From an archaeon (GTDB lineage Archaea; Iainarchaeota; Iainarchaeia; Iainarchaeales; Iainarchaeaceae), in contig DATDXA010000031.1 in assembly GCA_035289485.1 (NCBI GenBank), positions 27,807-91,806 of the forward strand: a DNA stretch of 64,000 bases. The letters run 5' to 3'. Shown in pieces: positions 3,561 through 35,618 of this stretch. The translations under genes and the position numbers were made by a program. Position 1 is the stretch's first letter, and each line of letters starts with the position of its first letter. The notes beneath the pieces were generated by a model. It saw nothing but the letters and a program-made list of their open reading frames with translations. It searched no databases and was not told the DNA's origin.

Positions 3561-4814
3561 TTGGCTTGGTGTGATTGGGGGTTTTTGGTTTTGCAGTACA
3601 AAACGGTTTTTGATTACAAATTAAAGGGAAAAACTGTATTCGTGCGCGCCGATTTGAACAGCTCCGTTGTTGAAGGCCGCGTTGTGATTTCCTCGCGCCT
3701 TCGCGAGCATTCAAAAACCATTTACGCGCTAAGTGAAGAAGGCGCAAAAGTCGTTTTGCTTTCACATCAGGGCCGCCCTGGAGAGGACGAATTTATCGAG
3801 CTCAAAAGGCACGCTGACCATATAAGAAAATTCACAGGGAAGCCGCTCAAATTCGTTCGCTGGAGCGAGGATTATGTGGGCGCCATTAAAGCAATGAAAG
3901 AAGGGGATGTGATTTTGCTCGACAACACCCGCTTCCAAAAAGAGGAGCAGGAAGACAAAACCCCGCAAGAGCACGGCAAGGACCCGTTCATCAAAAATTT
4001 GGGGCCTTTGGGGCAGCTTTTTGTTCAGGATTCCCTGAGCGTTTGCCACAGGCCGCACGCAAGCGTTGTGGGTTTCAAAAAGTACATGCCATGCGTTGCA
4101 GGCCCTGTGCTTTCGCATGAATTAGAGGCGCTCTCAAAGCTTGACAAATCCAAAAGAAGCGGAAAGCTCGTGGTTCTCGGAGGATCCAAGCTCTCTGATT
4201 CTGTTGCAATTCTAAAAGGCATGCTTGATAGCGGCATGTGCAATGAGGCATGCATAGGCGGGCTATTTGGCGAGCTGTTTTTGAAAGCGAAAGGAACTGA
4301 TTTTGGGGCAAAAGAAAAGTTCTTCTCGGAAAAAGGCTTTGAAAAGATGCTTCCTGCCGCCAAGGCGCTTTTGCAAAAGCACGGCAAGAAAATAATCCTT
4401 CCAACCGACCTTGCAATCGAGGTTCCTAATGGCGCGGGAAAGAACGGCGCAAGCTCAAAGCGCAAGGAGATAAAAATCTCAGATTTACCAAGCGAATACA
4501 GCCCGCTTGATATCGGCAGCGAAACCACGGAGATTTTCAAAAAGAAAATCAGGCAATCCGAAGTCGTGGTATTCAACGGCCCGATGGGCGTTTACGAGAA
4601 AACCAAGTTCTCTGTTGGCACAAAAAAAGTACTCGAAGCAATCGCATTCCACCGCTGCTTCTCAATTATTGGGGGAGGTGATACCGAGCGAGCGCTCACT
4701 TCATTCGGGCTTGTGCCGCAGGATTTTTCGCATGTCTCGCTTGCCGGAAAAGCACTTTTGCAATATTTGAGCGCGGAGCCGCTTCCCGGCCTTGAGATTT
4801 TGGAAAAAAAATAA
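3561..4814 (+). CDS. pgk: Phosphoglycerate kinase
   Basis: Archaeal PGK-like N-terminus (VFVRADLNSS...LSHQGRPG) and a C-terminal GGGDT-type hinge region. 417 aa. Confidence 0.9.
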   Translation: MAWCDWGFLVLQYKTVFDYKLKGKTVFVRADLNSSVVEGRVVISSRLREHSKTIYALSEEGAKVVLLSHQGRPGEDEFIELKRHADHIRKFTGKPLKFVRWSEDYVGAIKAMKEGDVILLDNTRFQKEEQEDKTPQEHGKDPFIKNLGPLGQLFVQDSLSVCHRPHASVVGFKKYMPCVAGPVLSHELEALSKLDKSKRSGKLVVLGGSKLSDSVAILKGMLDSGMCNEACIGGLFGELFLKAKGTDFGAKEKFFSEKGFEKMLPAAKALLQKHGKKIILPTDLAIEVPNGAGKNGASSKRKEIKISDLPSEYSPLDIGSETTEIFKKKIRQSEVVVFNGPMGVYEKTKFSVGTKKVLEAIAFHRCFSIIGGGDTERALTSFGLVPQDFSHVSLAGKALLQYLSAEPLPGLEILEKK

Positions 4815-4833: not shown

Positions 4834-5976
4834 CTAAACAAGTTCAATTATCTGCTTTGCAATTTCCGCTTTCGTTCCCCCGAGCCACTTTGATTTTTTT
4901 GCGGAGCAAAAATACATCTCCCTCTTTTCAGCTTCGCGTGCATGCGCCCTGAGATCCGTTGCAGCAAGCGCGTGCAGCCCTTTCTTTTTTAAAAATTCCT
5001 TTGCCTCTTTCTCAATTTGCGCTCTGCTCTTGCCCCAAAGCGCCTTGAATGCGACAATTTTTATGTGCGGGAATTTTTTGCGCACGGTTTCTATGAGTTT
5101 TGCGCGTGGCTTCAAATCCAAAGTTACTGTTTTAATTGAATCCATTTTTCCAGGGGTTTTTTTCAATTCAAAATCCGGAATTGCCGCAGGGCAGAAAAAA
5201 TATTCTGCGCCGCGCGCAAGTTCACTTAGAACCTTTTCTTCCAATTCATCCGCAAAATCCGCCCTTTCAAAATCCAGAAATTCAGACCCTACTTTATTTC
5301 CAATTATTTTCACGTTCCCCTTCTGCCTTTTGAGCTCAAGTGCGAGTTCGGTTCCGAGTTCACCCGTGCTGTGGTTTGTAATAACGCGCACATCATCAAT
5401 TTTTTCCTGTATTGCTCCGGAAGCAACAACAATTTTCTTTCCTGCAAATTTATTTCTGGAAAGCGCCCTCTCCACTTCAAAAACAATTTTGCCAATGGAT
5501 GCAAGCTTTGCCTTTCCATCTTCTTCTAGCGGCGCAATCATTCTCACCCCGCGCGTTTCAAGCTTTTTGAGGTTCTCCAAAACAATAGGGTGCTCATACA
5601 TGGGCTTGTGCATTGCAGGCGCCAGCAGAACCGGCTTTCCCGCCCCGATTGCAACAGTTGCCATTGTTGTCACGGGCGTATCATCGATTCCCATTGCTAT
5701 TTTGCTTATCGTGTTTGCTGTTGCGGGCGCAATAAGAAGCAGGCTCGCTTTTCCCTTTTTTCCAAAAAGCTTCACATGCTCAATGTTTCCGGTAAGCTTT
5801 GAAATTACCGATTTTCCGGAAGCAAATTCCATCGATTCTTCGCTTACAAGCTGCCTGCCCCATCCGCTCATAACAACTTGGACTTCAAACCCTTTCCTTC
5901 GCAGTTCGCGGCATAGTTCAAATGAGCGCACCGCAGCAATGCTACCTGTAACGCCAAGAACTATCAGATGTTTCAT
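4834..5976 (-). CDS. coaBC: Bifunctional phosphopantothenoylcysteine decarboxylase / phosphopantothenate-cysteine ligase (CoaBC, Dfp)
   Basis: Flavoprotein N-domain (LGVTGSIAA...APAMHKPMY) followed by a DFP/CoaB domain (ASGAIQEKIDDVRVITNHSTGELG). 380 aa. Confidence 0.85.
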   Translation of the reverse strand: MKHLIVLGVTGSIAAVRSFELCRELRRKGFEVQVVMSGWGRQLVSEESMEFASGKSVISKLTGNIEHVKLFGKKGKASLLLIAPATANTISKIAMGIDDTPVTTMATVAIGAGKPVLLAPAMHKPMYEHPIVLENLKKLETRGVRMIAPLEEDGKAKLASIGKIVFEVERALSRNKFAGKKIVVASGAIQEKIDDVRVITNHSTGELGTELALELKRQKGNVKIIGNKVGSEFLDFERADFADELEEKVLSELARGAEYFFCPAAIPDFELKKTPGKMDSIKTVTLDLKPRAKLIETVRKKFPHIKIVAFKALWGKSRAQIEKEAKEFLKKKGLHALAATDLRAHAREAEKREMYFCSAKKSKWLGGTKAEIAKQIIELV

Positions 5977-6018: not shown

Positions 6019-6953
6019 TTAAGTATCGTCCGTTAGTGAACTGCCATCAGTGAAGAAAAACGTAATGCGGAACGTACCCGGTGTTAGTATAGATTTGTTG
6101 CTATAAAGGTCAAAGGTCTGCGCGCCCGAGTTTGCAGGAATCTGCTGCCCATAATCTGAATTCTGCTGGCTGCCATTCTTGCGCACAACAACTGGCCAAG
6201 CCCCATTATTGACTGTTGACCAATAATCGCCTGTGCCATTCAGCCTCACATCAATATGGTCTATCGTCTTGGGGTTTGTCAATGTCAGATTTGCAGTCCA
6301 ATGCCAGTCTGGACCGTCACCGGGCAAAAAATCATTGGCGCTGTTGCCATAATCTTTTGCGAAATCAGCAGAGGCCGAGTCAAGCAAAACACTGAGCGAA
6401 TTGCTTCCGCCACCGGGCGGCGGAGACGAAGGGCAGTTGCTATTTTTCACTTCCACCGCGCCCTTTTCAGTGTAGGTCTTTACAATCTTGGTAGTTGTGC
6501 AGGGGAAACCGGCGCATGAATATGCCTTGACATCATAAATGTCGCAAACCTCGCTTCCGGATAAAGTGCAAGGGATGTCCTTGTGCGTTGTATTGACTGT
6601 CACGTTTTCTGACCACTGGCAATAAATCTGCCCGTACTTCTGGCCCACTATCTCCACTTTGTATTTTGCAACTGCCGCCCCAATATCAACCCCTATTGTA
6701 AAAGTATCTCCAGAGCCGCTCCCCGAACCGCCTCCGGTTGATGTTGCCGTGAACTTCTTGCACGCGGTAGGAGTGGTTATTTTTATCCCATCAGGCGAGG
6801 GTGGAATATTGCTTTTCACCCCATCAAAGTTGCATCCGGTCGTGCTCTGCCCTGTTCCAATCGCATTGAGCGCAATGACCGTTATGATTGCGAGCACCGC
6901 AAGCCCGCCGCCGAGAAGAAGGTATTCGGTTGCGGTCTGGGCGCGTTACATCA
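6019..6953 (-). pseudogene. Pilin-like protein with class III signal peptide, paralog A. The reading frame has TAA at codon 3 (ATG ATG TAA then RAQTATEY...). The tracked ORF restarts at GTG 6897.
   Basis: The reverse complement of 6945-6953 reads ATGATGTAA in frame with RAQTATEYLLLGGGLAVLAIITVIALNAIGTGQ, which is homologous to the N-termini of paralogs B and C. TATA motif about 27 nt upstream. Confidence 0.6.
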
Positions 6954-6976
6954 TAGTGAATAGAATGCCTTCAAGT

Positions 6977-6990
6977 ATATTTTAAGCTTT
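6977..6990 (-). promoter_or_regulatory. BRE/TATA promoter motif (AAAGCTTAAAATAT on gene strand) for pilin-like paralog A
   Basis: Near-identical 13-14 nt motif upstream of all three paralogs. About 25 nt upstream of ATGATG, so consistent with a leaderless transcript. Confidence 0.5.
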
Positions 6991-7009
6991 GCAAACGATT
7001 ATAGTCTGA

Positions 7010-7939
7010 TTACGGATAATGGCATCCCCATATCGCGGTTCCTGCACCCGAGCATGCCCACCACTGTACCCCCGCAGAGGTATACGAATCAAATACATAC
7101 CCTCCATTCGTGCATGTATTAGGGGAACTGCCGCATGCAGGAATCGGCATGCAAGTGCCGCCATAATAATTGTAACCGAATCCGCAACCGCAGCTATTTG
7201 GCGGAACCCAAAATGATGGCGAGGTGCAAGTAACCTTTGCTACACAAGTGCCCGATAAAAATACGAAATTCGGGTTGTCGCATTCGCAAGTGGTGCCGTA
7301 AGAATCAACATGCGCTCCTGCAGGGCATGTAAACGGCGTAACAGGAACCACTGGTGCGGATGTACCGGGGCAGTCGCTGTTTTTCACTTCCACTGCGCCC
7401 TTTTCCATTGAGATTTCCATTGTTTTGTTCTGGGAATCGAATGCATACGCCGCCACATCATATGCGCCGCATGGGGCATCGCCCGGCACATTGCACACAT
7501 ACGAGACCGTGCTGCCATTGGGTTGCGCCACATTAGCAGGGTAGCTGTACCCCCCTGGGTTTTGGTCAGCGCAGAAACTATAGCCTGCGGACTTTTGCGA
7601 ACTCACAATCACGCCGTATCTTTTCACCTTCGAGCCCACATCGAATTTCACCACAAATGAACTACTATACCCAGAGCCGCTTCCGGAGCCTCCTACTCCT
7701 GTCATAATGGCCTTTTTGCATAATGTCGGGCTCGTTATCCTAATCCCATCCGGCGGCACCACAAGGCTGCTTTTTCCGGCATCAAAGTTGCAGTTGGTCA
7801 GGTCCTCTCCAGTTCCTATGGTATTGAGTGCCAGAATAGTAATAATCACAAGGACAGCCACGGCTCCTCCAATTAGCAGCAGGTATTCGGTCGCTGTCTG
7901 AGCACGTTTTTTGGCAAAAAAACCCTTCAATTCTGGCAT
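7010..7939 (-). CDS. Pilin-like protein with class III signal peptide, paralog B, carrying a Cys-rich C-terminal module
   Basis: KKRAQTATEYLLLIGGAVAVLVI (Q at +1, E at +5, hydrophobic helix). Conserved core CNFD...PPDGIRIT...CKK, a GGSGSGSG linker, and EKGAVEVKNSDCP. More than 15 Cys in the last 120 aa. Confidence 0.7.
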   Translation of the reverse strand: MPELKGFFAKKRAQTATEYLLLIGGAVAVLVIITILALNTIGTGEDLTNCNFDAGKSSLVVPPDGIRITSPTLCKKAIMTGVGGSGSGSGYSSSFVVKFDVGSKVKRYGVIVSSQKSAGYSFCADQNPGGYSYPANVAQPNGSTVSYVCNVPGDAPCGAYDVAAYAFDSQNKTMEISMEKGAVEVKNSDCPGTSAPVVPVTPFTCPAGAHVDSYGTTCECDNPNFVFLSGTCVAKVTCTSPSFWVPPNSCGCGFGYNYYGGTCMPIPACGSSPNTCTNGGYVFDSYTSAGVQWWACSGAGTAIWGCHYP

Positions 7940-7960
7940 GCCAATAATAACCGATTCATG

Positions 7961-7973
7961 ATATTTAAGCTTT
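7961..7973 (-). promoter_or_regulatory. BRE/TATA promoter motif (AAAGCTTAAATAT) for paralog B
   Basis: Same motif as upstream of paralogs A and C. 22-34 nt upstream of the start codon. Confidence 0.5.
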
Positions 7974-7991
7974 CTTGGCGCGGATTTATTG

Positions 7992-8528
7992 CTAGCAAAC
8001 GCCGCTGAATTTCACAACGACAGCGCCCTTTTCCGTTGCGGATTCTGACAATTTGTTCGATAAATCATAGGCACTCACAACCACATCATAAGTGCCGCAT
8101 TGTTCGGAGCCATCCGGATAGCAATAATGAGTCACCGAAGTCGCATTCGGTGGCACTGGCTGATTTGACAAATCACAGAAATATGCGCCCGATATCTGCG
8201 ATTTTATTGTCACGCTGTATTTTGAAACTTTCGGCCCGACATCGAATTTTACCGCAAACCAGTCATCTCCTGAACCGCTCCCTGATCCGCTTCCGGATCC
8301 GCCGCTAAATGAGGTCATAATCGCCTTTTTGCACGCTGTAGGGGACGTTATTTTCACCCCATCCGGCGCGACAGGTATGTTGCTTTTCACAGAATCAAAG
8401 TTGCAGCCGGTCTGGGTTTGCCCAGTTCCAATGGTGTTAAGCGCGAGAACGGTTATTATCGCAAGAACTGCCAATGCTCCGCCGAGCAGAAGAAGATATT
8501 CGGTTGCTGTCTGTGCGCGGCTTTCCAT
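7992..8528 (-). CDS. Pilin-like protein with class III signal peptide, paralog C (short form, core domain only)
   Basis: MESRAQTATEYLLLLGGALAVLAIITVLALN, the same conserved core, a (GS)6 linker, and EKGAVVVKFSGVC at the C-terminus. Confidence 0.7.
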   Translation of the reverse strand: MESRAQTATEYLLLLGGALAVLAIITVLALNTIGTGQTQTGCNFDSVKSNIPVAPDGVKITSPTACKKAIMTSFSGGSGSGSGSGSGDDWFAVKFDVGPKVSKYSVTIKSQISGAYFCDLSNQPVPPNATSVTHYCYPDGSEQCGTYDVVVSAYDLSNKLSESATEKGAVVVKFSGVC

Positions 8529-8574
8529 TCAAAAATCCCCTGATGCCAATAGTGTAACCAAATAGCTTATTCCT

Positions 8575-8588
8575 GTTATTTAAGCTTT
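8575..8588 (-). promoter_or_regulatory. BRE/TATA promoter motif (AAAGCTTAAATAAC) for paralog C
   Basis: Same motif, about 50 nt upstream of the start. Confidence 0.45.
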
Positions 8589-8674: not shown

Positions 8675-9793
8675 ATGCAGCTAGACAACCTCTCACTTGC
8701 ATACCTTATAGAAGAGCTAAGGCCAACACTTGACGGGGCGTATGTGAACAAGGTTTCGCAAACAGATAATGGCTGGCTAAAAATAAAGCTCCACTCAAAA
8801 AAAGGCTCGAAGGATTTGATAATTGCAAAGAACAATTTCTTCATTTCAAATTATTCAATTCAGGCAAAGCACGGCAAGAACAATTTCGCGGTTTCGCTCA
8901 AAAAAAGCCTCTACAACAAAAAGCTGGTTTCCGCGCAAACACACGATTTCGACCGCGTGGTTGAATTCAAATTTCTAGAGCACACGCTTGTTCTTGAGCT
9001 CCTTGGCGAGGGCAATCAAATCCTCATGGGAAAGGACGGGAAAATAATTTCTTGCGCGCGCAACGAGGACTGGGCTGACCGCAAAACCCGCAGGGGCGAG
9101 ACATATATTTTCCCAAAGCACCAGCGCAATCCCGCGCAGCTTGAGGGCGATGATCTAAAAAAGATTTTCGGCTTTTCGGAAAAGGACGCAATCCGCGCCC
9201 TGCTCTCTTCTGTAAACATTCCGCCCCTGATTGCAGAAGAAACTTTTTTCCTTCTAAAAATCGACAAGGCAAAGCCCGCTGCAAAAGTTTCCGAAGCGGA
9301 AGCCGAAAGGGTGGCAGCCAAAATAAGGGAATTCTACTCGCTCAAAGAGGAATACGTGCCGGTCTCTTACAAGGGTTTCGTTTTTCCTTTTCCACTTCAG
9401 CACCTAAAGGAACAGCCCGCGCCCATAAAATCACTAAACGATTTTCTAAATGAATTGCTAGTGCCCACGATTTCCACTCCAAAAGAGGAGGAGAAAAAGA
9501 CGGTTTCCAAGAGCCGCGTCTCGGGACTTGAATTCATGCAAAAGCAGCAGGTGGAGGCGAAAAAGAAATTCGAGCTTGCGGCAGAGGAAAACAACCGCAA
9601 AGCAGAGCTCATATACGAGCATTACAATGAAATCGAGGAGCTGCGAAAGGCCGTGCTCGCAGGTGTGCAAAAGAACCTTAACGAAAAAAAGATTTCAGAA
9701 GCCCTATTTGCCGCCGCTTCAAAAGGAAATGCGGCGGCTAGGCTGCTAAAAAAACTTGACATCAAGAAAAAGAAAATGGAACTTGAACTTTGA
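8675..9793 (+). CDS. NFACT-N (FbpA/Rqc2/Tae2-like) domain protein, short form with a Lys/Glu-rich coiled-coil tail
   Basis: The N-terminus LSLAYLIEEL...GAYVNKVSQ...WLKIKL...LIIAKNNFFISNY resembles the NFACT-N / fibronectin-binding protein A N-domain. At 372 aa it is shorter than typical archaeal NEMF homologs (about 600-670 aa). Confidence 0.55.
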   Translation: MQLDNLSLAYLIEELRPTLDGAYVNKVSQTDNGWLKIKLHSKKGSKDLIIAKNNFFISNYSIQAKHGKNNFAVSLKKSLYNKKLVSAQTHDFDRVVEFKFLEHTLVLELLGEGNQILMGKDGKIISCARNEDWADRKTRRGETYIFPKHQRNPAQLEGDDLKKIFGFSEKDAIRALLSSVNIPPLIAEETFFLLKIDKAKPAAKVSEAEAERVAAKIREFYSLKEEYVPVSYKGFVFPFPLQHLKEQPAPIKSLNDFLNELLVPTISTPKEEEKKTVSKSRVSGLEFMQKQQVEAKKKFELAAEENNRKAELIYEHYNEIEELRKAVLAGVQKNLNEKKISEALFAAASKGNAAARLLKKLDIKKKKMELEL

Positions 9794-13788: not shown

Positions 13789-16700
13789 ATGGGAAAAAAA
13801 CTCCTGCCTTTGCTGCTGCTCTTTTCGCTTGTTTTTGCAGGCTGCCTTGCCAACCCGACAACCGAAGACCGCCTCTCCTGCCTCGAACTCACATCATATG
13901 CTTTCACATCAATCCCCCAATGCAAAACGCAGGATGAGTGCTTTTCGCGCGCACAGGCTGCTCTTGGTTTTGATGAATCCTCCCTTAACTCCATTACCCG
14001 TGAAGAGCTCCTAGGCGCAAAAAACCATCTCGCGCGCTCATGGCTCTTTCTCAATAACGCAAGGGCGAATCTCAAAAACATCCATGCCTTATGCTACTCC
14101 GAGAGCTATTTGGGAATTCCAATGGAAGTGAATGAGCTCAATTCAAATCTCACAACCGTTGGAAAAGAAATAGATTTCTTCAACAAATCCGCGGCGCGCG
14201 CAATCAACACAGAGCTCACTTCAATGGAACTAGATGACATCAATGTGATTGCGCAAGAGCCGCTCTTTGATGATTACTCAGTTCTAAACCAGAATGTGGT
14301 GGATTTTTCGGCGCACAATTCCTCCGGTAAAACCTACGCCTCACGGTTCATCCGCGAGGCCGAAAAATTCAACACAATCGCGCAAACACTAAGCCTTCAG
14401 GGCACACTGCAGCAAACAAGCCTTTTTGGAATAGTTTCAGAAAACAAATCCGCGGCAAAAGAACTGCTAGCCGAATCATCAAAAAAGAGGGATTTTCCGC
14501 TGCAAATAATCGCGCCGGTTTTTTATGGCATTTCAGATTTCCTGCGTGATTTTTTTGCGCTCGGAGGCTCTCTGCAGTCCCTAAAAGCCCTGCCCTCATT
14601 TGATGTGCTATCCTCAATCAACAGCCTCGTGGGAAGCGACAACTCCGCCGCATCTGAATTCTTCTCAGTATTCAAGTCAGATGCGGAGCACAGGAATTTA
14701 CTGAACCTGAAAAACTCCGGCAAGATGCAGCGGGCAAGTTCAGAACTGCCATTGCTTGAATCCGGGCTTGAAATGATTTCCGCTTCCCTCAAATCAATTT
14801 ACACGCAGGATTACCTTGATGCCGGCCTTGCATCCTCGGGTTTTGAGGAATTTCCCGTATCCGAACCGGATCCGCGCAATTTCTATTCTGCTTATTCTGC
14901 AAGGATAAATTTCGTAAAATCGAGGCTGCGCTCCCTTGAGCAGGCGGAGTTTCTTGGCACAATAACCCTTGGCGCAAAAACAACAGAACTTATCGAAATA
15001 CTAGAAGAGAATTCGCGCATTGCAAATGAAATGGATTATTTCACGAGGCTCTCATCCGGCGCCCTGTCCGCATGCGCAGAAAGCCTCTTGCTCGCAGAAT
15101 CAAAAATTTCCTCAAAAGAATTTGAATCGGGAGATGCCGCCGTACTCTCACTCAAGGCAAAGCTGGCTTCCGAGATTTCGGATTTCAAAGCGCAAAACCG
15201 ACTCTCAGGGTGCATTGCAGCGCTTGCGGATTTTCGCAGGCTCGAAGAATACATTAAAAGCGAAAACCCAAGTGCAAAAGCAGCCGAACTGATTGCAGCG
15301 TGCATAATTGATGCGCAGCAGCTCGGCCCTTTTGCGCAATCAGCGGAACTTTCCGCGCAGCTAAATGCCCTAAACAAAATAGTGCCGCCATATGCTAACC
15401 CCGAACTTGTCCTATCTTCCTGCACAAGCTTAAAACAGAGGCTTCTAACCTCCGCGCAATCCTCAGCCGAATCCGCTTCCGCAACACAAAAATTTTCCAC
15501 ACTCTCAAATTACGTCTCAATTCTTGCGCAATTTGCAGCGAAATTTCCCTCTCTTCCATCGGAGCCCGCGGCAAAAAAACTCCAGAATTCTTTCACGGAA
15601 ATTTCCTCAAATTTTACTGATTCCGGCATCAAGAGCGAATCAATTGCGCAAGCGTCCGAACTTGGCGCAAAGCTCGAAAGCCTCAATGCGGATGCAGAGC
15701 AAACACTCAAATCACTTGCCTCAGAGGCGGTGGAAAAATATTCCAAAATAGATTACCCGCAAAACCCGAACCCTCTTCTAATCCCTTCTGGTGTGCTTTC
15801 TGCTTCACAATCCTTTGCGAGAATTTCGTTTGAAAATATCCCCCGCGAAATTCCCCTGTCCGTTATTTCCGCAATAAGCCTGAATTCGCGGGATGCCGCC
15901 GCTGTTTTCTCCACAGGAAATATCGGCTTTGCAGCCCAGGGCGAGAAAACATCCCTGCGTTTTACCGGCCTTCTGCCCGGCATAAATTCAATAGTGCTTG
16001 ATCTCAATGCATTCGCCCAAAGCGCGGGAGCAAAAAATCCCGAAATTCCGCTAAGTGCCGGCGCGGAAAAAATAATCTCTGAAAAAGACTCCATCCTGAA
16101 AAACGCCGCACAATTTTCAGGCGACAAAAAACCCGAGATTGATTTTTTCTCCCAAAAAATAGATTTCCTTGCAAAGCAGGGGCTTTTGGATGATGCGGCA
16201 AAGGCGCTTGCGCTGCTTAAGGAAACTTATTCGGGCGCGGAAGTGCAGGCACAGGAGGCGCTAAAAAAGAAAGCCGATTCATACGCCGAGAAATTCGGGC
16301 AGCTTGCAGCCCTGCGCACCTCCCTTGCAAAGAATTCGAAAGATTTGCTTGATAATTTTTCCTCGCTTGGCGCAGCAATTCCCGCAGAAATTGCCGCATA
16401 TATCCCGATTACAGGGCAGCGCGCAAAAGAACTCTCTGTGCTTGCAGCAAAACAAATTCCGCAGGAAAAGGAATTTGCAGCCCTTATGCAAAAAGGCGAT
16501 TTTGCAGGCGCCATATCGCTTGCCGAAAAAACAGGGCTTGATGAACAAATAACGCTGCTTGATTCTGCTAACAGCGAATCGGAAAATGCCATTGAAAAAA
16601 TCAGGCAGAACGCAATCTCCTCATACGAACTCGCTTCAGAAAAAAGCAAATCTTCTCCTGCGAGTGCCGCTGCCGAGCAGCTTCTCTTAAAATCCAGGGA

Positions 16701-16953
16701 TTCTTTGGGGAAAAAATCCTACCTAAGCTCCCTGCTAAATTCCTCAAATGCGCTTGCTGTTCTCCCTTCGGGCAACCAAAACCTTTTCGGGGGTTTTGAA
16801 ATTCCGCTTCCGGTTTACCCGCTCGCTCTTGTGGTTGTCGCTGCAGGAATTTATGCGTGGAAAAAGAAATCCGTTCAAAAGCCCGCAGAGCCTTCAAGAG
16901 TAAAAAAAGCAAATGAAGAAAATCAGGAAGATGCAGAGCCGCTTCTTTTCTAA
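13789..16953 (+). CDS. Large (1054 aa) exported Ala/Ser/Leu-rich protein with N-terminal signal peptide plus lipobox-like Cys and a C-terminal transmembrane anchor
   Basis: MGKKLLPLLLLFSLVFAGC signal/lipobox, low-complexity predicted-helical body, and C-terminal LALVVVAAGIYAWKKK followed by an acidic tail. Confidence 0.7.
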   Translation: MGKKLLPLLLLFSLVFAGCLANPTTEDRLSCLELTSYAFTSIPQCKTQDECFSRAQAALGFDESSLNSITREELLGAKNHLARSWLFLNNARANLKNIHALCYSESYLGIPMEVNELNSNLTTVGKEIDFFNKSAARAINTELTSMELDDINVIAQEPLFDDYSVLNQNVVDFSAHNSSGKTYASRFIREAEKFNTIAQTLSLQGTLQQTSLFGIVSENKSAAKELLAESSKKRDFPLQIIAPVFYGISDFLRDFFALGGSLQSLKALPSFDVLSSINSLVGSDNSAASEFFSVFKSDAEHRNLLNLKNSGKMQRASSELPLLESGLEMISASLKSIYTQDYLDAGLASSGFEEFPVSEPDPRNFYSAYSARINFVKSRLRSLEQAEFLGTITLGAKTTELIEILEENSRIANEMDYFTRLSSGALSACAESLLLAESKISSKEFESGDAAVLSLKAKLASEISDFKAQNRLSGCIAALADFRRLEEYIKSENPSAKAAELIAACIIDAQQLGPFAQSAELSAQLNALNKIVPPYANPELVLSSCTSLKQRLLTSAQSSAESASATQKFSTLSNYVSILAQFAAKFPSLPSEPAAKKLQNSFTEISSNFTDSGIKSESIAQASELGAKLESLNADAEQTLKSLASEAVEKYSKIDYPQNPNPLLIPSGVLSASQSFARISFENIPREIPLSVISAISLNSRDAAAVFSTGNIGFAAQGEKTSLRFTGLLPGINSIVLDLNAFAQSAGAKNPEIPLSAGAEKIISEKDSILKNAAQFSGDKKPEIDFFSQKIDFLAKQGLLDDAAKALALLKETYSGAEVQAQEALKKKADSYAEKFGQLAALRTSLAKNSKDLLDNFSSLGAAIPAEIAAYIPITGQRAKELSVLAAKQIPQEKEFAALMQKGDFAGAISLAEKTGLDEQITLLDSANSESENAIEKIRQNAISSYELASEKSKSSPASAAAEQLLLKSRDSLGKKSYLSSLLNSSNALAVLPSGNQNLFGGFEIPLPVYPLALVVVAAGIYAWKKKSVQKPAEPSRVKKANEENQEDAEPLLF

Positions 16954-16954
16954 A

Positions 16955-18172
16955 TCATTTCTTCAAATAAAAGTAGGCGAAAACACCAAGCGAAATCAGC
17001 GCAAGTATTGCAGAGCCGATTATTTCAATCCCTATTCCCTTCTGCAATGTCACAGTTGTGGTTTCGCACTCAAGCAGGCGCGATTCATACTCTGCCGCGC
17101 ACCCAAGTTCGTAATTGCCAGCGCTCAGGCCTTTCACGCTGAAAACAACATCCTGCGAAGCATTTGGTTCAAGCGTGCCAATTGATTTGGATTTTTCCCC
17201 GGTAACTTCAAGGCCCGTAAGAGGCGTTATTGCTACGCTAGAAACATTTTCCTTGCTTATATTTTGCACCGTGATTTTGAGCGGAATGCTCCCCCCAGTG
17301 TAGAGCTTGTCATTATCCAGCGCGACTTTTACCGAAATCTTGTGCGGCGGCTCAACCGCCCCAAGATCTGGCCTGTTTGTGAGCATCCTCTCTTCCTCAC
17401 CAAAAACATTTGTAAATGCCATGACCGAGGGGAGCAGCGTGAAGGGCACTGCCTTGTGCGCTACAATAAAATATGAAATGCTCAGTTCCCCAGGCTTTGC
17501 GCAGTTTCCAAGCGCATCCCGCTCAGAGCACTTTGGCACTGTTCCGCTCTTTGAAGTGATTCCGTCAAGCACGCTAACTTCAGGAGCCGCCCTTTCAAGC
17601 TCGGCTTTTCTATAGCTTAGTGAAACCGTTGCATCTTCAGTTCCAAAATTTCTTGCAACTGAAGTGATTTTGAACGGCACTCCCACATATGGCGCGTAAG
17701 TGTCAAGGTCCATTTTGAAGCCTTTCTCCTGCGGGAAATAAGCTCCCGTATAAACCCCGAATTTCGAATCCGCAAAAACCGTTATCGCATTCACGGTGTA
17801 AGAAGTCTGGCCGCAAACCGTGACGCTGTTATTTTCCTTCAAAAGCCCCTGGGGCACCGGGATTCTCACAACCCCGTTCTGGAAATCGGCGTATGTAAGC
17901 TCTGCAATCTTTTGCGTGTTGAATAAAACATTGATTTTCGCGTTGCTCTTTGGCACGGGCGCGAGATTTGCATTGAGTGAAATTATCTGAAACATCTCTG
18001 CGTTGATGTCGCCTGAGTAAATAAAATCAAAATTTGTGCACTTGTGCACATTAACCCCGCTTATGTAGAAATCCTGGTAGCCTTGGTCGTGGAAAGTGAA
18101 TTCCTGCACAACCGCTGCTGAGGTTATGTAGCTGAAAAATACTAGTGCAAATAAAATAAGGAATTTTTTCAT
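16955..18172 (-). CDS. Exported hypothetical protein with signal peptide and C-terminal TM anchor (Thr/Val/Ser/Gly-rich)
   Basis: MKKFLILFALVFFSYITSAAV signal and C-terminal IIGSAILALISLGVFAYFYLKK. Its stop codon is 1 nt from the stop of the convergent 1054-aa gene. Confidence 0.65.
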   Translation of the reverse strand: MKKFLILFALVFFSYITSAAVVQEFTFHDQGYQDFYISGVNVHKCTNFDFIYSGDINAEMFQIISLNANLAPVPKSNAKINVLFNTQKIAELTYADFQNGVVRIPVPQGLLKENNSVTVCGQTSYTVNAITVFADSKFGVYTGAYFPQEKGFKMDLDTYAPYVGVPFKITSVARNFGTEDATVSLSYRKAELERAAPEVSVLDGITSKSGTVPKCSERDALGNCAKPGELSISYFIVAHKAVPFTLLPSVMAFTNVFGEEERMLTNRPDLGAVEPPHKISVKVALDNDKLYTGGSIPLKITVQNISKENVSSVAITPLTGLEVTGEKSKSIGTLEPNASQDVVFSVKGLSAGNYELGCAAEYESRLLECETTTVTLQKGIGIEIIGSAILALISLGVFAYFYLKK

Positions 18173-21353: not shown

Positions 21354-24300
21354 TTACTTCAACCTTACCGAATCCAAATTCCTTATCGCCTGCGAGCTTA
21401 TCCCGAACTTTTGCGAAAAGTGCTTTGCAAGCTCAACACATTTCTCGGCTTCGCCGTGATCTGTAAGTATTCTCTTCGGCTTGGGCTTTAGGTTTCTCAC
21501 ATACGCAGAGAGCTGCATGCGATCAGAGTGCCCTGAAAACCCATCAAGCCTTTCAATCCTAAGATTCACATTCAGTTTTCTTGTCCTTCCGGCATTATCC
21601 GTAATCGGCAGGCTCTTTACTCCGCTTAGAACCTTTCTTCCAAGCGAGCCTTCACCCTGGTAACCTACAAAAGCAAGTGTATTGACCGGGTTCTCCGCGA
21701 GGCGGTAGAAGTACTGAACGCTTGCTCCGCCAGTTAGCATTCCGCTAGAAGCCAGAATTATTGCTTTCCCGTTCTGTGCAATTGCGTCCCTGTCCTCCGG
21801 CTTTGCAACCTGGAAAATATCTGAAGTGAAGGGCGAATCGTTTTGCAAAACCCTCTTCTGAACTCCCGTGCGCAAATACTCAGGATATGCCGTGTGTATT
21901 GCCGAGCTCTCCTTGGTCATTCCATCAATATACACTTTGACTTCAGGGTCAATTAGGCCTTTTCTGTAATAATTCTCAATTACAAGCTGAATCTCCTGCG
22001 CCCTTCCGACAGCAAACACGGGCACCAAAATAGAGCCGCCCTGATTCACAGTTTCTTGTATGATTTTCAAAAACCTCGCTTCCGTGTCCTCACGCGCGGT
22101 TTGAATGTCATCCTTTCCGCCGTATGTGCTCTCAACAATAAGGGTTTCAAGCCTTGGATAATTTATGTCAACATTATTGAAGAGCCTGCTAAAGCCGTAC
22201 TTGATGTCTGCGCTGTAAACCAAGTTGTGCGCCCCCTCTCCAATATGAAGGTGCACTGATGCGCTTCCGAGCACATGTGCCGCATTATGGAATGTAAGCC
22301 TCATATCCGGCGCAATATCAGTAACTTCGCGGTAATCGCGTGTGATGCAGTACTTGAGCATTTCCTTAACATCGCGCTCAGAATAAGGCGCTTCCTTATT
22401 CTCCTTTGCCATGATGTCAAGATAGTCAAAGAGAAGCAGCGCGCCAAGATCACGTGTCGGCTCGGTGTTGTGAAGGCAAATTGGCGCTTCCCCGCCAACA
22501 AAATTCTGGTCATCTTCAACCGAAAAGTCGTAGACAAACCCATTAGTTGGCTCTACCATATTAATCTCTGTAATCGGGAGGAATGCCAGGTCGGTTTCTG
22601 AAAACTCCATTAACTTTTCCCTGGTTTCCTGCGCCACCAAAGAAGTGCCATTGGCACTTTTTACCCAATTCTTATTTAGAAGTTCTGCAAGCCTTTGCTT
22701 GGTGACATGCTTTCTATTTTTCAGCCTGTGGTAAAACCACTCTTGCCCAAAACCCACTTCTTTTAAGGGCAAAATATCGCACCCTTTCTTATCTAATCTT
22801 CTTTTTCCAAAGAACTCGGATAAATTTATTGTGATGCTGTAAACCGTATTTTTTGTTTTTGCTTTCGGCATCGCAATAGTAAATTTGCTGTATGTAAAGC
22901 CGAGTTGCGAGCATAAATATGACAAATCCGAGGCCAAATCCTTGCTGACAGTTGTTGCGGTAGCTGTCTTGTTCAGTTGGTTTATTGTGCCATCACCTTC
23001 AAAATAGGCTTCCAGAAAAGCTAACTTTAGTTCGTCCCCGACGTTGAATACTATTTCTGGTATTCTTTTACTTGTTGCTTTTTTATAGCCTGGGAAAAAT
23101 TCTTTCTTGAATACGTCCAACAAATTTTTAGAATTTATTGCCACCCTAAGCCTTGTTTCCTGGCTTATGCTATCTTTTGCCTCAATGTCGAACACTTTTC
23201 TAACCGCATTTTTAAGTTCCTCTACAATTCCCCTGTCTTTGAGCCCGAAGGTGAGCCTTATCCCCCTTTTCTCAAAATGACCTTCTGCAGTAAAATATCC
23301 TAAAATTTTCATGAGGTCTGTGTTCACGCTGATTTTGCCCGGGAGCTTGATTTTGGATCCTTTGCCATTGTATTGCTCCAAGCCAATCGTTTCAATTTTT
23401 TCATTTCCTGACGGGAGTTTGTGCGGGGCAATAAGATAGTCCCCAATCTTTAATTCGCTGACTTTGGCATCAGAGATTTTTCCATTTTTGAGGACAAATA
23501 CGCTGTGGGATCCCGTTACCTTTACCTTTCTTTTGTTCCTTGTCACAATTTCAAATATTTTGCCTTCAACTTTGTGCCTTATTACTTTTTTGACTTTCTT
23601 AAAATTAATTTTCTTGTCTTTTGAGAAAGCAGGCACGTATAACTCCTGATTTGGCTGTGCCGCCATGTATTCGTTTTCAGGATAAAAATCCACATTCTTC
23701 GAGTTGCCGATGATTTTATCTATCACTGCGCCAATTTTTTCTATTTTTATGCGGCCATTTTCCTTTATCATAACCGGTTCTGCATAGTCCACACTCATGT
23801 ACACCGGGCCGCGGTAACCCAGTTTGAACAGGTAAGGCAAAAATCCTATGTGGTCCATGTGCGTGTGGCTAATCACAACCGCATCAAGCTCATTTATCGG
23901 GAAGCGAATCGCGTCAAGATAGGGAAATGCGTCCTCAGAGTTTTGCGCCGCAACATTGATTCCACAGTCCATTAATATTTTTGTCCTGCGGGTTTCAAGC
24001 ATTATGCAGCTTCTTCCAACCTGCCTAAATCCTCCAAGAGGAGTTAGCCTAATCCAGCTCGGGCCCGGCTTTTCAGAATAAATTTTCTTTGCAGTTTCCT
24101 GCAAAATCTTTTTGCGCTCGGAAGCATATTTCACAAGGTGGTGCCTAATCCCGCGCAATATTTCACTTGGCGAAGTCGGGCTTCTCAAAATTTTAGGGGT
24201 CCATCCGGTTTGCAGTATAATTTCTTTTGTTGTCATTCCGCCCTTGCCAATTACAAGGCCGGGCTTAAGCGCTTCAATTACAACTTCACTAAAAGCTTCC

Positions 24301-24581
24301 ATGAACTGAATGTCCGCGATTTTGGCGTCCTCAGGGACAATTTTCATTATCTTTTCGCGCGCCTCTTTTTCCTCAAGCAGCAGAGATTTGTCCGCGCGGA
24401 TATTCACTTTCTTCTTTAGCTGGTGCGCAATCGCGCGCACATAATCCTCGTTCTCGTGGAAAGCGCGGGGATTTTTTGTATAAATCGCAATCTCAGGCCC
24501 TTCAAGGTCGACTGATGAGACTTCGGCTTCCTTTGGCACGATTGCCGCAACAGTTTCCTTTACTTCCTTTAGATATTCCAT
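21354..24581 (-). CDS. aCPSF1 / FttA (KH-KH, metallo-beta-lactamase, beta-CASP, RMMBL ribonuclease; archaeal transcription termination factor) interrupted by an intein
   Basis: N-terminal KH domains (VIGKGGMTTKEI), HTHMDH zinc motif, and GPVYM then intein then TEPTRDL, which aligns with ...GPVYCTRPTRDL... of intein-free aCPSF1. C-terminal beta-CASP/RMMBL region. 1075 aa = 259 + 446 + 370. Confidence 0.9.
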   Translation of the reverse strand: MEYLKEVKETVAAIVPKEAEVSSVDLEGPEIAIYTKNPRAFHENEDYVRAIAHQLKKKVNIRADKSLLLEEKEAREKIMKIVPEDAKIADIQFMEAFSEVVIEALKPGLVIGKGGMTTKEIILQTGWTPKILRSPTSPSEILRGIRHHLVKYASERKKILQETAKKIYSEKPGPSWIRLTPLGGFRQVGRSCIMLETRRTKILMDCGINVAAQNSEDAFPYLDAIRFPINELDAVVISHTHMDHIGFLPYLFKLGYRGPVYMSVDYAEPVMIKENGRIKIEKIGAVIDKIIGNSKNVDFYPENEYMAAQPNQELYVPAFSKDKKINFKKVKKVIRHKVEGKIFEIVTRNKRKVKVTGSHSVFVLKNGKISDAKVSELKIGDYLIAPHKLPSGNEKIETIGLEQYNGKGSKIKLPGKISVNTDLMKILGYFTAEGHFEKRGIRLTFGLKDRGIVEELKNAVRKVFDIEAKDSISQETRLRVAINSKNLLDVFKKEFFPGYKKATSKRIPEIVFNVGDELKLAFLEAYFEGDGTINQLNKTATATTVSKDLASDLSYLCSQLGFTYSKFTIAMPKAKTKNTVYSITINLSEFFGKRRLDKKGCDILPLKEVGFGQEWFYHRLKNRKHVTKQRLAELLNKNWVKSANGTSLVAQETREKLMEFSETDLAFLPITEINMVEPTNGFVYDFSVEDDQNFVGGEAPICLHNTEPTRDLGALLLFDYLDIMAKENKEAPYSERDVKEMLKYCITRDYREVTDIAPDMRLTFHNAAHVLGSASVHLHIGEGAHNLVYSADIKYGFSRLFNNVDINYPRLETLIVESTYGGKDDIQTAREDTEARFLKIIQETVNQGGSILVPVFAVGRAQEIQLVIENYYRKGLIDPEVKVYIDGMTKESSAIHTAYPEYLRTGVQKRVLQNDSPFTSDIFQVAKPEDRDAIAQNGKAIILASSGMLTGGASVQYFYRLAENPVNTLAFVGYQGEGSLGRKVLSGVKSLPITDNAGRTRKLNVNLRIERLDGFSGHSDRMQLSAYVRNLKPKPKRILTDHGEAEKCVELAKHFSQKFGISSQAIRNLDSVRLK
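22467..23804 (-). mobile_element. Intein (446 aa, Ser1...His-Asn, +1 Thr) with LAGLIDADG homing-endonuclease domain, inserted in aCPSF1
   Basis: Begins SVDYAEPVMI and ends ICLHN followed by T. LAGLIDADG motifs ILGYFTAEGHF and LKLAFLEAYFEGDGTI. AT-richer than the exteins. Confidence 0.8.
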
Positions 24582-33281: not shown

Positions 33282-35618
33282 TTACGCCGCCTTCTCAGCA
33301 ATTTCCTTCTCAATAAGCGACCTTATCTTCTCCGCATCGAACCCGAGCTTAATGAGCCTTGTCTGGCCCTTGATTCCTTTCCCGGAATTTGTCGAGTGTA
33401 TGAGCCCGTACATTTCAAGTTCGGAGATGTATTCGCGGTACCAGCGCGCGCTCACCGTGGTTTCCTTGAATTTTTTTGAAATGCGGCAGTACTCATCGTA
33501 AATTTCCCCAGAGAACAAAACCCCTTCCTCGCTCTCGCCGGTTATTTTTTGCATCGGTTTTTTGTTCAGCGCAAGCGCCGCAATCGCATACAAAACAAGC
33601 TGCTGCTGCTCAGGAAGAGTAGAAACCATATTGAAAATTATCTCCTCTTCTACGGTTTTCTTCGCCTTTTTAACTTCGGCATCCGTAACTTTGCCAAGCG
33701 ATTTCTTATCGGCAATCTCACCTGCTCGCAGCATGAGCATTACCGCAGTGCGCGCATCCCCAGATTCCTGCGCTGCCACTGCTGCCGCGAGATGTATTGC
33801 GGATTCTTCAATGGTATTTGGCCGAAAAGCCGATTGCACGCGTTGCTTTATGATTTCCGTGAGCTCCTGCGCATTATATGGCGGGAACACAAGCTCGTGC
33901 TCGCAGAGGCTGCTTTTGGTGCGCGGGTCAAGCCTGTCTTTAAACATCACATTGTTTGAAATGCCAATTATTGATATGCCGCCATCCTTTATTTCATCGT
34001 TCGCGCGCGTGAGGCCATAAATTAATTCATCCAGGTCCTTTACTTTATCAACTTCATCCAGTACGAGTATCAGTTGCTTTCCCCTGCGCGCGTAATCAAC
34101 CAGCTTTTCGTAAATGAAAGCCGCGGAAAAGCCCAAAAAATTCTCCTCAGGGTACAATTCCTTTACAATCTTTATGAGGATGCGGTATTTGCTGTTGTGA
34201 TTTCTGCAGTTGACGTAATTTCCCTCAATTGGCATGTTCTTTGAGATTGCAAAATCAAGAAGCTGCTGCATCACATGCTTTGTAACCGAAGTTTTCCCGG
34301 TATTATGGGAAATAATTCCATTTGCGATAAAATTATGGTTTTTTGGAACCGTCAAATCATACACAAAATCTTCAAATGCCTCTTCAATCTTTGCAATTTT
34401 TGAGGCGGAAAAGCCCGTTTCATTAATTGGCATTGTTTTGACATACTTTGTAATCATTATCCGCAGCCTTTCTTGTTTTACAGTGCTATAAAACCCTATT
34501 TTATTGTAAAATTTGAATATGTTTTCCTGTCCCTGTATATATAGTCGGTAGGCGTCAAATATTTTTCCGTTTAATTTGGCTGGCTTGCTTCTGACTTTGC
34601 ATCTGATTCCTTCCTGGTATAAAATATATGCGACCTGCTGCAGGAATTTTTTTGAATTCGAGTAGTACTCTATCTGAAATGTTTGCTGGCTTACAGTGCC
34701 ATCGCCGGAAAACAAAGCCTTCAAAAACTCCCTTTGGATTGTGGGTGAGGCTTGTAAAATCGATTCGGGAACTTCAATAATCCGGCTTTTCTCTCCAAAA
34801 GGGACTCCAAGTGAGTTCAGAGTTTGGCACGCGTTTTGTGAAATCATGTTGACGTGTGCACACCTGTCCTTTGGATAAATTATTGACGGGGTTCCGCCAA
34901 AGACTTTTGCCAAATCCTCCTGCACTTTTTTAAGCAAATTAGCATCAATGCTGAAATATCTATATCTTTGCCTGTCCGCATTATAGTAATAACCTCTGCC
35001 ATCCTTTGCTTTTTTCTGTTTTCTATTAAGACTTCCGTCGCTTAAAGTAAAACCCAGCAATCTGGCCAGTGCAAGTGGCATTTCATGGTCATTTAAGGAT
35101 GGCAAATCATATCCAAGTGCAAGTTCATCAGCTATCTTCAATTGATTGGACTTTTTCCACTCCATATCCGAAGTTAAAAGAGGATGGTCCCGTGTAACAG
35201 TCAACTCATAGCCGTTTTCAAGTGTTATTTTAAGCAATTTGTCATTATTCTTGTATTTCAGGAAGACAAAATCAGACCACTCATATTTTTTTATTTTCTT
35301 GTTGAATGTGGCCACTAAATCAGTTAGCATATCAACGTCTCTGATTTTTTTCCACCCATTACTCGTGTAAACAAGGCTGTCGCCTGCAATGCAACCCGTT
35401 TTTCCGTAAATGAAAACATTGTCGGATTTCTTGCCGCGGATTGATTCTGAGAGGATTGAGGAGATTTGTTCTATATACTTGTCGCGGAAAGGGAGTATTT
35501 TAGGAGTATAATGCGTGGTTATGATGTTTCTGTCCAAAAAAATGGTTTCGCGCGCGAACTCGCGCTCAAAAATGTTCACACGTTCAGAACTAACCGTAGA
35601 TACAGAAGTATTTTGCAA
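33282..35618 (-). CDS. Orc1/Cdc6 replication initiator interrupted by an intein in the Walker A P-loop. TTG start as tracked.
   Basis: Extein reads ...NVFIYGKTG then intein then TGKTSVTKHV (P-loop GKTGTGKTS once spliced). LVLDEVD Walker B and a C-terminal winged helix. 778 aa = 75 + 364 + 339. Confidence 0.9.
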   Translation of the reverse strand: MQNTSVSTVSSERVNIFEREFARETIFLDRNIITTHYTPKILPFRDKYIEQISSILSESIRGKKSDNVFIYGKTGCIAGDSLVYTSNGWKKIRDVDMLTDLVATFNKKIKKYEWSDFVFLKYKNNDKLLKITLENGYELTVTRDHPLLTSDMEWKKSNQLKIADELALGYDLPSLNDHEMPLALARLLGFTLSDGSLNRKQKKAKDGRGYYYNADRQRYRYFSIDANLLKKVQEDLAKVFGGTPSIIYPKDRCAHVNMISQNACQTLNSLGVPFGEKSRIIEVPESILQASPTIQREFLKALFSGDGTVSQQTFQIEYYSNSKKFLQQVAYILYQEGIRCKVRSKPAKLNGKIFDAYRLYIQGQENIFKFYNKIGFYSTVKQERLRIMITKYVKTMPINETGFSASKIAKIEEAFEDFVYDLTVPKNHNFIANGIISHNTGKTSVTKHVMQQLLDFAISKNMPIEGNYVNCRNHNSKYRILIKIVKELYPEENFLGFSAAFIYEKLVDYARRGKQLILVLDEVDKVKDLDELIYGLTRANDEIKDGGISIIGISNNVMFKDRLDPRTKSSLCEHELVFPPYNAQELTEIIKQRVQSAFRPNTIEESAIHLAAAVAAQESGDARTAVMLMLRAGEIADKKSLGKVTDAEVKKAKKTVEEEIIFNMVSTLPEQQQLVLYAIAALALNKKPMQKITGESEEGVLFSGEIYDEYCRISKKFKETTVSARWYREYISELEMYGLIHSTNSGKGIKGQTRLIKLGFDAEKIRSLIEKEIAEKAA
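34302..35393 (-). mobile_element. Intein (364 aa, Cys1...His-Asn, +1 Thr) with LAGLIDADG homing-endonuclease domain, inserted in Orc1/Cdc6
   Basis: Starts CIAGDSLVYTSNG and ends NGIISHN followed by T. LAGLIDADG motifs LARLLGFTLSDGSL and FLKALFSGDGTV. AT-rich relative to exteins. Confidence 0.8.

Follow-up and report, generated by a model that had tools for sequence, protein, structure and literature searches.

A tandem array of three related genes for pilin-like proteins was analyzed in a 64,000-nucleotide stretch of archaeal DNA (contig DATDXA010000031.1, positions 27,807 to 91,806). This whole stretch is called the window here, and its first letter is position 1. Judged from synteny, a conserved single-copy gene has been triplicated in tandem specifically in this lineage, and two of the copies have gained C-terminal modules. 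The three genes, termed paralogs A, B and C, probably encode type IV pilin-like subunits. B, and formerly also A, would be modular pilins that bear an additional C-terminal module (head), and the subunits would be incorporated into a filament on which the heads are displayed. The CoaBC protein encoded in the window showed 72–73% identity to those of two archaeal metagenome-assembled genomes (MAGs), 64% to that of the MAG LFW-281_4 and 63% to that of Ca. Iainarchaeum andersonii. LFW-281_4 has been classified as a member of the Diapherotrites (PMC8561730). The host lineage is a DPANN archaeon of the Diapherotrites/Iainarchaeota type, and the samples carrying the array were aquifer metagenomes.

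Triplication of a conserved single-copy gene

The three adjacent open reading frames (ORFs) are located on the minus strand, at the positions given in a preliminary description of this DNA. Together with their promoter-like elements (BRE, B recognition element) and the two neighbouring genes that mark the site, they are arranged as follows.

7992–8528, minus strand: paralog C, 178 aa, the canonical short member with the prepeptide MESRA, a predicted cleavage site between A5 and Q6, a helix and an immunoglobulin (Ig)-like core
7010–7939, minus strand: paralog B, 309 aa, with the prepeptide MPELKGFFAKKRA, a predicted cleavage site between A13 and Q14, a helix, an Ig-like core and a Cys-rich tail
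6019–6945, minus strand: open frame of paralog A, 308 codons after a TAA, encoding RAQTATEYLLLGGG..., the core and a 139-aa tail
6019–6897, minus strand: paralog A as called by gene callers, GTG start at 6897, 292 aa
8577–8588, minus strand: BRE/TATA-like element AAAGCTTAAATA upstream of C
7962–7973, minus strand: BRE/TATA-like element AAAGCTTAAATA about 25 nt upstream of the ATG of B
6981–6990, minus strand: BRE/TATA-like element AAAGCTTAAA(ATATA) upstream of the vestigial start of A
4834–5976, minus strand: CoaBC, conserved downstream neighbour on the same strand and marker of the orthologous site
8675–9793, plus strand: NFACT_N protein, conserved divergent upstream neighbour and second marker of the orthologous site

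A word-indexed search of 5.8 billion protein sequences with C matched only the three paralogs, B with E=2e-46 and A with E=9e-32. The cores of A, B and C are 48–60% identical. The ratio of nonsynonymous to synonymous substitution rates (dN/dS) between the paralogs was 0.2–0.3, with dS being saturated (at least 1). The elements described earlier were found in all three proteins and in the same order: (R)AQTATEYLL(L)..GG with a hydrophobic stretch, CNFD...PDG(I/V)(K/R)IT.PT.CKK, a GG(SG)3-5 run and a beta-rich region containing YDV and EKGAV.VK.S. The C-termini diverge as described. C ends with ...GAVVVKFSGVC, three residues past the core. In a six-frame translation of the window the N-terminal pattern QxxxE[YF] occurred in three places only, which are A, B and C. 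The protein encoded by B is identical to the NCBI entry HLC92771.1, annotated as a "hypothetical protein".

Each paralog is preceded by one AAAGCTTAAA(T/A)A element, and just three occurrences of this element were detected in the 64 kb. Position 8588, at which the region noted in the preliminary description ends, is the edge of the element of C. In B and A the distance from the element to the ATG is about 25 nt, the same as in the orthologues, and such a spacing is typical of leaderless archaeal transcripts. C differs from this layout by a leader of about 30 nt with GGGGA before the ATG.

The family to which the paralogs belong was explored by an exhaustive HMMER profile search of 1.84 billion representative proteins (50% identity clusters). 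This search yielded 30 matches, among them about 17 full-length remote homologues of 158–208 aa with E-values between 4e-27 and 9e-4, whose clusters are all labelled "hypothetical". These proteins share one plan, consisting of the signal, the helix, a Cys-loop of the form C..F[DS]....P.G.NI..PT.C and a beta domain that ends with ...GAIxVK at the very C-terminus. The Gly-Ser run and any C-terminal extension are absent from all of the approximately 17 homologues, which agrees with the earlier view of a core to which heads were added. Two other matches were set aside. P0011, a protein of 4003 aa, matched the profile 11 times, each time partially and in the beta domain; its Pfam matches looked like composition artefacts with no stretch passing, although it may contain repeats of the Ig-like domain. 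The match to P0018, a cadherin, was treated as a composition or hydrophobic-segment artefact.

Searches of genome contigs with B and of metagenome contigs with A gave no match, and the syntenic sites were reached using CoaBC as the query. Six relatives (P0004, P0005, P0006, P0008, P0010 and the LFW-281_4 MAG) carry one copy between the divergent NFACT_N gene and the co-directional CoaBC gene. Around this copy the genes for Tyw1, PRC, PGK, GPI, GAPDH and PfkB are found in the very arrangement of the window. When all fetched loci were scanned by hmmsearch, three copies were detected only in the genome of the window and one copy in each relative. In Ca. Iainarchaeum andersonii the NFACT/CoaBC site is empty. 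The triplication is regarded as lineage-specific because the gene is single-copy at the same site in six related genomes and present three times only here. Both outer junctions, the flank upstream of C and a terminator-like T-tract after A, resemble the sequences that flank the orthologues present as one copy, which fits with duplication in place. The Gly-Ser insertion predates the triplication, because it occupies the same position in all three paralogs.

Two further observations were made on the family. In the PDG(V/I)(K/R)IT block (7742–7750 in B, 8355–8363 in C and 6787–6795 in A) the orthologues possess a conserved N-I-T sequon (DGVNITNPT). Since all three paralogs have K or R in place of N, this putative N-glycosylation site was lost before the triplication. 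Moreover, the pilin-like gene of one relative (L009:3321-5275) overlaps the start of CoaBC by 4 nt (3812–3815). This overlap suggests that a surface-protein gene is transcribed together with a gene for coenzyme A biosynthesis.

Signal peptide, core domain and C-terminal modules

The class III motif reads KKRA/QTATEYLLLIGGAVAVLVIITILAL in B and ESRA/QTATEYLLLLGGALAVLAIITVLAL in C (the slash marks the predicted cleavage site), and in A it is encoded behind an in-frame TAA. It is followed by a hydrophobic helix of about 27 residues. The corresponding Pfam model, PF04021 (Class_IIIsignal, formerly DUF361), comprises 27 profile positions and has a gathering cut-off of 23.7 bits. A Pfam scan aligned profile positions 1–24 with residues 11–34 of B (19.1 bits) and residues 3–26 of C (18.3 bits), whereas A gave no match. 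The class III signal that had been proposed was thus found at the right place, albeit at sub-threshold scores. Thirteen of the 19 family members matched the model at E<=0.01, with a best E-value of 2e-6, and at least one orthologue, P0008, passed the cut-off with 27.9 bits.

Q(+1) and E(+5) do not vary among the 19 family sequences, which are only 26–41% identical, and Y(+6) and L(+7) are nearly invariant. In Methanococcus maripaludis, the DUF361 pilins processed by EppA have as their signature a short prepeptide followed by +1 Gln and +5 Glu (PMC3875500). The earlier interpretation of Q+1 and E+5 as a sign of EppA/PibD-type processing is in line with this signature. A +6 Tyr is a feature of Flp pilins and is missing from the methanococcal pilins (PMC3875500); it is present in the array family. 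Taken together, the N-termini are supported as class III (prepilin-type) signals, and the proteins are putative substrates of a prepilin peptidase. NCBIfam contained nothing relevant for the paralogs. Archaellin families of Pfam and NCBIfam did not match them, and arl genes were not found in the window. Also the families of substrate-binding proteins gave no match to the paralogs, and the neighbouring genes (CoaBC, PGK, NFACT, Tyw1) do not include an ABC transporter.

AlphaFold2 models of B and A were built on the 19-sequence family alignment. The core was modelled confidently in both proteins, with values of the predicted local distance difference test (pLDDT) of 82–96 (85–93 for the core of B). 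The predicted helix spans residues 16–42 in B and 4–29 in A (26–27 residues) and is followed by a short helical turn. Two strands precede the Gly-Ser run and five follow it, giving a sandwich of seven strands. The core is therefore predicted to be an approximately seven-stranded Ig/fibronectin type III-like sandwich, a generic fold that is compatible with archaeal pilins and not diagnostic of them. Pfam contained no domain for it, a search of PDB sequences with the family profile produced only noise (E>=0.05), and Foldseek returned only marginal matches to Ig V-domains in the PDB. Two pairs of Cys residues stand out in the family alignment. Both residues of the first pair are present in 14 sequences and both are absent in five, never one alone, and this all-or-none occurrence fits a disulfide. 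The second pair, C118 and C136 in the numbering of C, is nearly invariant, and both pairs would staple the sandwich.

The Gly-Ser runs were located at the following positions.

8268–8303, minus strand: Gly-Ser run of C, GGSGSGSGSGSG
7670–7693, minus strand: Gly-Ser run of B, GGSGSGSG
6709–6735, minus strand: Gly-Ser run of A, GGGSGSGSG

The run had been taken for a spacer between modules. According to the models it probably represents an enlarged loop between strands 2 and 3 of one Ig-like domain instead. The strands before the run were assigned to the same sandwich because the ordered part after it is too short for the approximately 95 aligned residues. The run of C is polymorphic in length: P0001 is otherwise identical to C and has a run that is four residues shorter. 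The contig carrying P0001 was looked for and not located.

Beyond the core, B and A possess the following modules.

7013–7375, minus strand: C-terminal module of B, 121 aa with 13 Cys (18 Cys in the whole protein)
6022–6438, minus strand: C-terminal module of A, 139 aa, rich in Ser, Gly, Asp, Asn and Thr

The Cys-rich module of B was confirmed with a slightly different composition, as more than 15 Cys had been counted before and 13 are present. One of them is common to A within NS[DN]CP. The 12 further Cys, read by eye, form two units C-x11-12-C-x-C-x10-11-C, each ending with GT-C, and a third unit of four Cys. A BLAST self-comparison revealed no significant internal repeat in this tail. The AlphaFold2 model of B shows small hairpins for the first Cys unit (residues 201–230, pLDDT 71–77), and then the pLDDT drops below 50. 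The structure prediction that had been proposed as a check was confident for the Ig-like core of both proteins and moderately confident for the Cys-rich head, there only in the first unit. The Gly/Asn/Ser/Asp-rich tail of A is likewise present and comprises 139 aa. It was predicted to be beta-rich and not disordered, at low confidence (pLDDT 37–71), and contains four of the six N-x-S/T sequons of A. A PGF-CTERM-like tail was found in none of the three paralogs.

The tails were searched for relatives in several ways. The tail of A matched nothing in the PDB. The tail of B resembled designed Pizza propellers of the PDB, a candidate that was rejected since it consisted of summed weak matches to a repeat protein with no stretch passing alone. 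The word-indexed protein search returned nothing for either tail, a weak negative because the parent proteins were not returned either. By tblastn no donor sequence for the tails was found in the window and in all fetched loci. The heads had been called exchangeable; neither a donor nor a second host of either tail was found, so that this part of the preliminary description was not retained.

Proposed assembly into a filament and the probable fate of paralog A

A type IV filament locus is located on the same contig about 14.5 kb from the array, past window position 1 (L043:12056-20984; window position 1 corresponds to position 11221 of L043). It encodes three small ORFs with class III-type N-termini, namely KTRAQVSMEYLVI (PF04021, 21.3 bits), SGQVSVEAI and KGQALIVDF. 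One of these three ORFs reads KTRAQVSMEYL. The family profile matched the first small ORF in the signal and helix only. Further products are an adhesin-like protein of 925 aa, which starts like a pilin and contains LVIVD propeller repeats (E=2e-36) as well as a VWA domain (E=4e-18), a 317-aa pilin-like ORF with the N-terminus KGLLFSL, a lipoprotein and a T2SSE secretion ATPase (E=6e-33), where the L043 record ends before any platform gene. The same arrangement is found in the relative L012. Type IV pili genes have been reported in Diapherotrites genomes (PMC8561730). As deduced from these genes, the organism has a type IV filament system, and the pilin-like genes of this system use the same RAQxxxEY signal as the array.

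These data suggest the following sequence of events. The precursors would be inserted by Sec, and a prepilin peptidase of the PibD/EppA type would cut between Ala(-1) and Gln(+1). The helix would keep the cleaved proteins in the membrane, from where they could be assembled into a filament or onto its tip by the type IV filament machinery whose genes lie about 14.5 kb away. C would serve as the canonical subunit. B would act as a modular pilin showing a disulfide-rich head of 12 Cys; its most likely place would be the tip, or sparse positions along the filament. A would represent a former modular pilin with a glycosylatable beta-rich head, now cut off from its start. A major subunit could reasonably be sought in the conserved, separately encoded gene of about 165 aa, which has a strong promoter. 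For the heads, adhesion to surfaces or partner cells is the most likely role. The term adhesin is a guess from the architecture, because the tails have no homologues and their models are of low confidence.

Several findings weigh against this interpretation. The PF04021 scores of B and C stay below the curated cut-off. For the tails of A and B no Pfam domain and no PDB, database or local homologue was found. Solved archaeal pilins or archaellins were neither among the top fold matches of the core nor detected by sequence. The array is set among housekeeping genes. Pilus genes elsewhere in the genome had been suggested as a check, and this check was answered in part: the T2SSE ATPase is encoded on the same contig, but the 64-kb window itself contains no pilus ATPase, and neither a prepilin peptidase (Peptidase_A24) nor a platform protein (T2SSF) was seen among the scanned ORFs of the window or within 10 kb past either end. 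Finally, paralog A may never be made as a protein.

In the main alternative, the proteins would be processed at a class III signal and would not form filaments. The N-terminus would then serve for processing and for tethering in the membrane or for a short bindosome-like pseudopilus, and the Ig-like domain and the heads would be displayed at the cell surface, off any pilus. Many archaeal proteins with class III signals are indeed non-pilin binding proteins (bioRxiv 10.64898/2026.04.22.720090). The position directly upstream of CoaBC among housekeeping genes and the fold without specific likeness to solved archaeal pilins are in agreement with such a role, and the flexible Gly-Ser loop and the bulky tails appear ill-suited to a tightly packed filament body. 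However, a substrate-binding-protein domain is absent and an ABC transporter is not found nearby. The invariant E+5 and the near-invariant Y+6 are linked to assembly in DUF361 and Flp-type pilins. Moreover, a helix with one Ig-like domain and about 140 aa in the mature protein is typical of archaeal pilins, and the filament machinery nearby is accompanied by pilin-like genes with the same RAQxxxEY motif. On balance, we regard the non-filamentous alternative as rather unlikely.

The assignment as pilin-like subunits does not extend to three functional proteins, as had been assumed, since A is separated from its start codon by a stop codon in frame.

6946–6954, minus strand: ATG ATG TAA, vestigial leaderless start of A with the in-frame stop at codon 3

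The conserved RAQTATEY of A is encoded behind this ATG ATG TAA (6954–6946). The next canonical start after the TAA is the GTG at 6897, which lies within the helix, and one Leu of the LLL(L/I) run is missing in A. The TAA is not an assembly error, because the 2741-nt region that includes it is 100% identical in five assemblies (L001–L005, from ENA, JGI and Logan), which probably sample one population. No frameshift or alternative frame that would rescue the start was found on reading the sequence. In the signal and helix region, now before any usable start, dN/dS versus C was 0.05. Therefore, A must have been an ordinary class III gene for most of its history and have acquired the stop recently. 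A is thus probably a young pseudogene that was silenced by a recent nonsense mutation at codon 3.

Alternatively, A could be alive by translation from the GTG at 6897 (MLAIITVIALNAIG/TGQ...). The remnant of the helix would then act as a short Sec-type signal or anchor, and the core and tail would be secreted or differently anchored. The 308-codon frame after the TAA is intact, the gene callers of several pipelines call the 292-aa product, and a GGCGGCGGG stretch is located directly upstream of the GTG. The remaining N-terminus, as read from the sequence, is hydrophobic with small residues at -3 and -1. Yet an intact frame would equally be expected of a young pseudogene, and the helix remnant lacks a positively charged n-region. 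The strong purifying selection on the signal region before the GTG shows that this region was translated until recently, and a promoter and a leaderless ATG ATG precede the TAA as at the starts of the orthologues. Translation of A from the GTG is therefore considered unlikely.

A more far-reaching idea, which we put forward as speculation and with considerable doubt, is that the single-copy orthologue is the major pilin of the Diapherotrites-type filament and has been duplicated here into a display scaffold. On a common polymerising stalk and Ig-like body, the differing new heads, a disulfide-rich 12-Cys fold and a glycosylated beta-sandwich, would tune attachment to surfaces or partner cells, and copies would be toggled by nonsense mutations in the population. 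If this holds true, no set of modular pilins would have been described from archaea before this one, and two new adhesin folds would come with it.

Least probable by far is an ordinary Sec signal-anchor or transmembrane helix with a coincidental likeness to class III signals, which would make the paralogs plain membrane-anchored Ig-domain proteins: although B and C remain under the PF04021 cut-off and a model of 27 positions may match hydrophobic N-termini by chance, [KR]-[AG]-Q-x-x-x-E-Y is conserved by position in the diverged family sequences, most of these match the model, and the motif recurs on pilin-like ORFs of the neighbouring filament locus.

Besides the array, the window also carries genes for PolD, CDP-archaeol synthase, FttA, Cdc6 and a proteasome subunit, which mark it as archaeal. 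Inteins with a LAGLIDADG endonuclease domain are present in two genes, one in that of FttA (beta-CASP/KH; 21354–24581) and one in that of Cdc6/Orc1 (33282–35618). Another LAGLIDADG homing-endonuclease-like ORF, which is free-standing and has 320 aa (58723–59685), lies between grpE and dnaK and overlaps the start of dnaK by one base; the N-terminus of DnaK is intact. Beside the CDP-archaeol synthase gene a 162-aa ORF (47773–48261) matches the exosortase/archaeosortase family (PF09721) in the C-terminal half of the latter, with 29.7 bits. Two proteins without a Pfam family may be envelope proteins. One, of 1054 aa (13789–16953), combines a lipobox-like signal (LVFAGC) with a transmembrane segment at the C-terminus. 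The other, of 405 aa (16955–18172), has a Sec-type signal, a weak CARDB match and likewise a transmembrane segment at the C-terminus. The relatives L012 and L013 possess both proteins at the corresponding place, with 1059 and 405–406 aa.

Significance of the locus and comparison with known systems

Contact with other cells or with surfaces is believed to be essential for DPANN archaea. To our knowledge, almost all of their attachment proteins are unannotated. The locus described here allows a clean ancestral state, in which one copy occupies a fixed site, to be compared with a derived state of three copies, two of them with heads. It points to the filament machinery nearby and provides a compact case for how archaeal pilins gain functional modules. 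These observations should be useful for DPANN surface biology, even if they will not surprise the specialist.

The closest counterparts of the signal are the DUF361 pilins of M. maripaludis, where EpdA-E and MMP1685 are substrates of EppA, and where pilin genes are often located apart from the genes of the machinery (PMC3875500). Like the array proteins, these pilins combine a short prepeptide, +1 Gln and +5 Glu with a hydrophobic helix, and several pilin-like paralogs per genome are encoded away from the ATPase/platform locus (PMC3875500). In contrast, the array proteins possess Ala instead of Gly at -1 and a Tyr at +6. Their globular part forms a sequence family of its own without a Pfam model, and their host is a DPANN archaeon.

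The architecture is best compared with bacterial modular pilins, which are widely distributed and comprise over 1,200 proteins in 264 architectures (PMC8179133). In Streptococcus sanguinis PilB carries a vWA module and PilC a lectin module, and both are thought to be tip-exposed adhesins (PMC8179133). A pilin module with an extra C-terminal module was observed here as well: all 17 orthologues and C end with ...GA(I/V)xVK, whereas a further 121 aa follow in B and 139 aa in A. As in the array, the module of PilB and PilC is grafted to the C-terminus of a pilin module via a short Pro/Ser/Gly-rich link, and non-modular paralogs are encoded beside them (PMC8179133). The array differs from the bacterial proteins by the archaeal class III signal and by an Ig-like pilin domain in place of the bacterial alpha-beta roll. 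In addition, no known domain was matched by the added modules, and of the two modular copies one is disrupted.

Archaeal proteins with class III signals and diverse C-terminal domains are also known (bioRxiv 10.64898/2026.04.22.720090). The substrate-binding proteins of the Sulfolobales bindosome and other archaeal class III binding proteins share with the array a pilin-type N-terminus, a functional non-pilin C-terminus and genes away from the assembly machinery. Unlike the bindosome proteins, the array proteins have neither a substrate-binding-protein fold nor an ABC transporter as neighbour, and a complete pilin-like domain is placed between the helix and the added module. A further parallel emerged from the profile search, in which P0019 and P0027 were found to combine a class III signal with a Laminin_G_3 (ConA-like lectin) domain. 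Their N-terminal signal and helix (KRAQGALEYLLLIGGA...) are nearly the same as those of the array and are followed by a domain of the carbohydrate-binding type, but the Cys-loop/Ig-like core is missing and the lectin domain directly follows the helix. This architecture shows that designs with a head on a pilin stalk are common in related archaea.

The array reveals no new mechanism, and its design principle is already known from bacterial modular pilins and from archaeal class III binding proteins. New in comparison with these systems are a pilin-like core family that had no name before and is restricted to a DPANN lineage, its expansion from one to three copies at a fixed site and two head modules for which no match was found.

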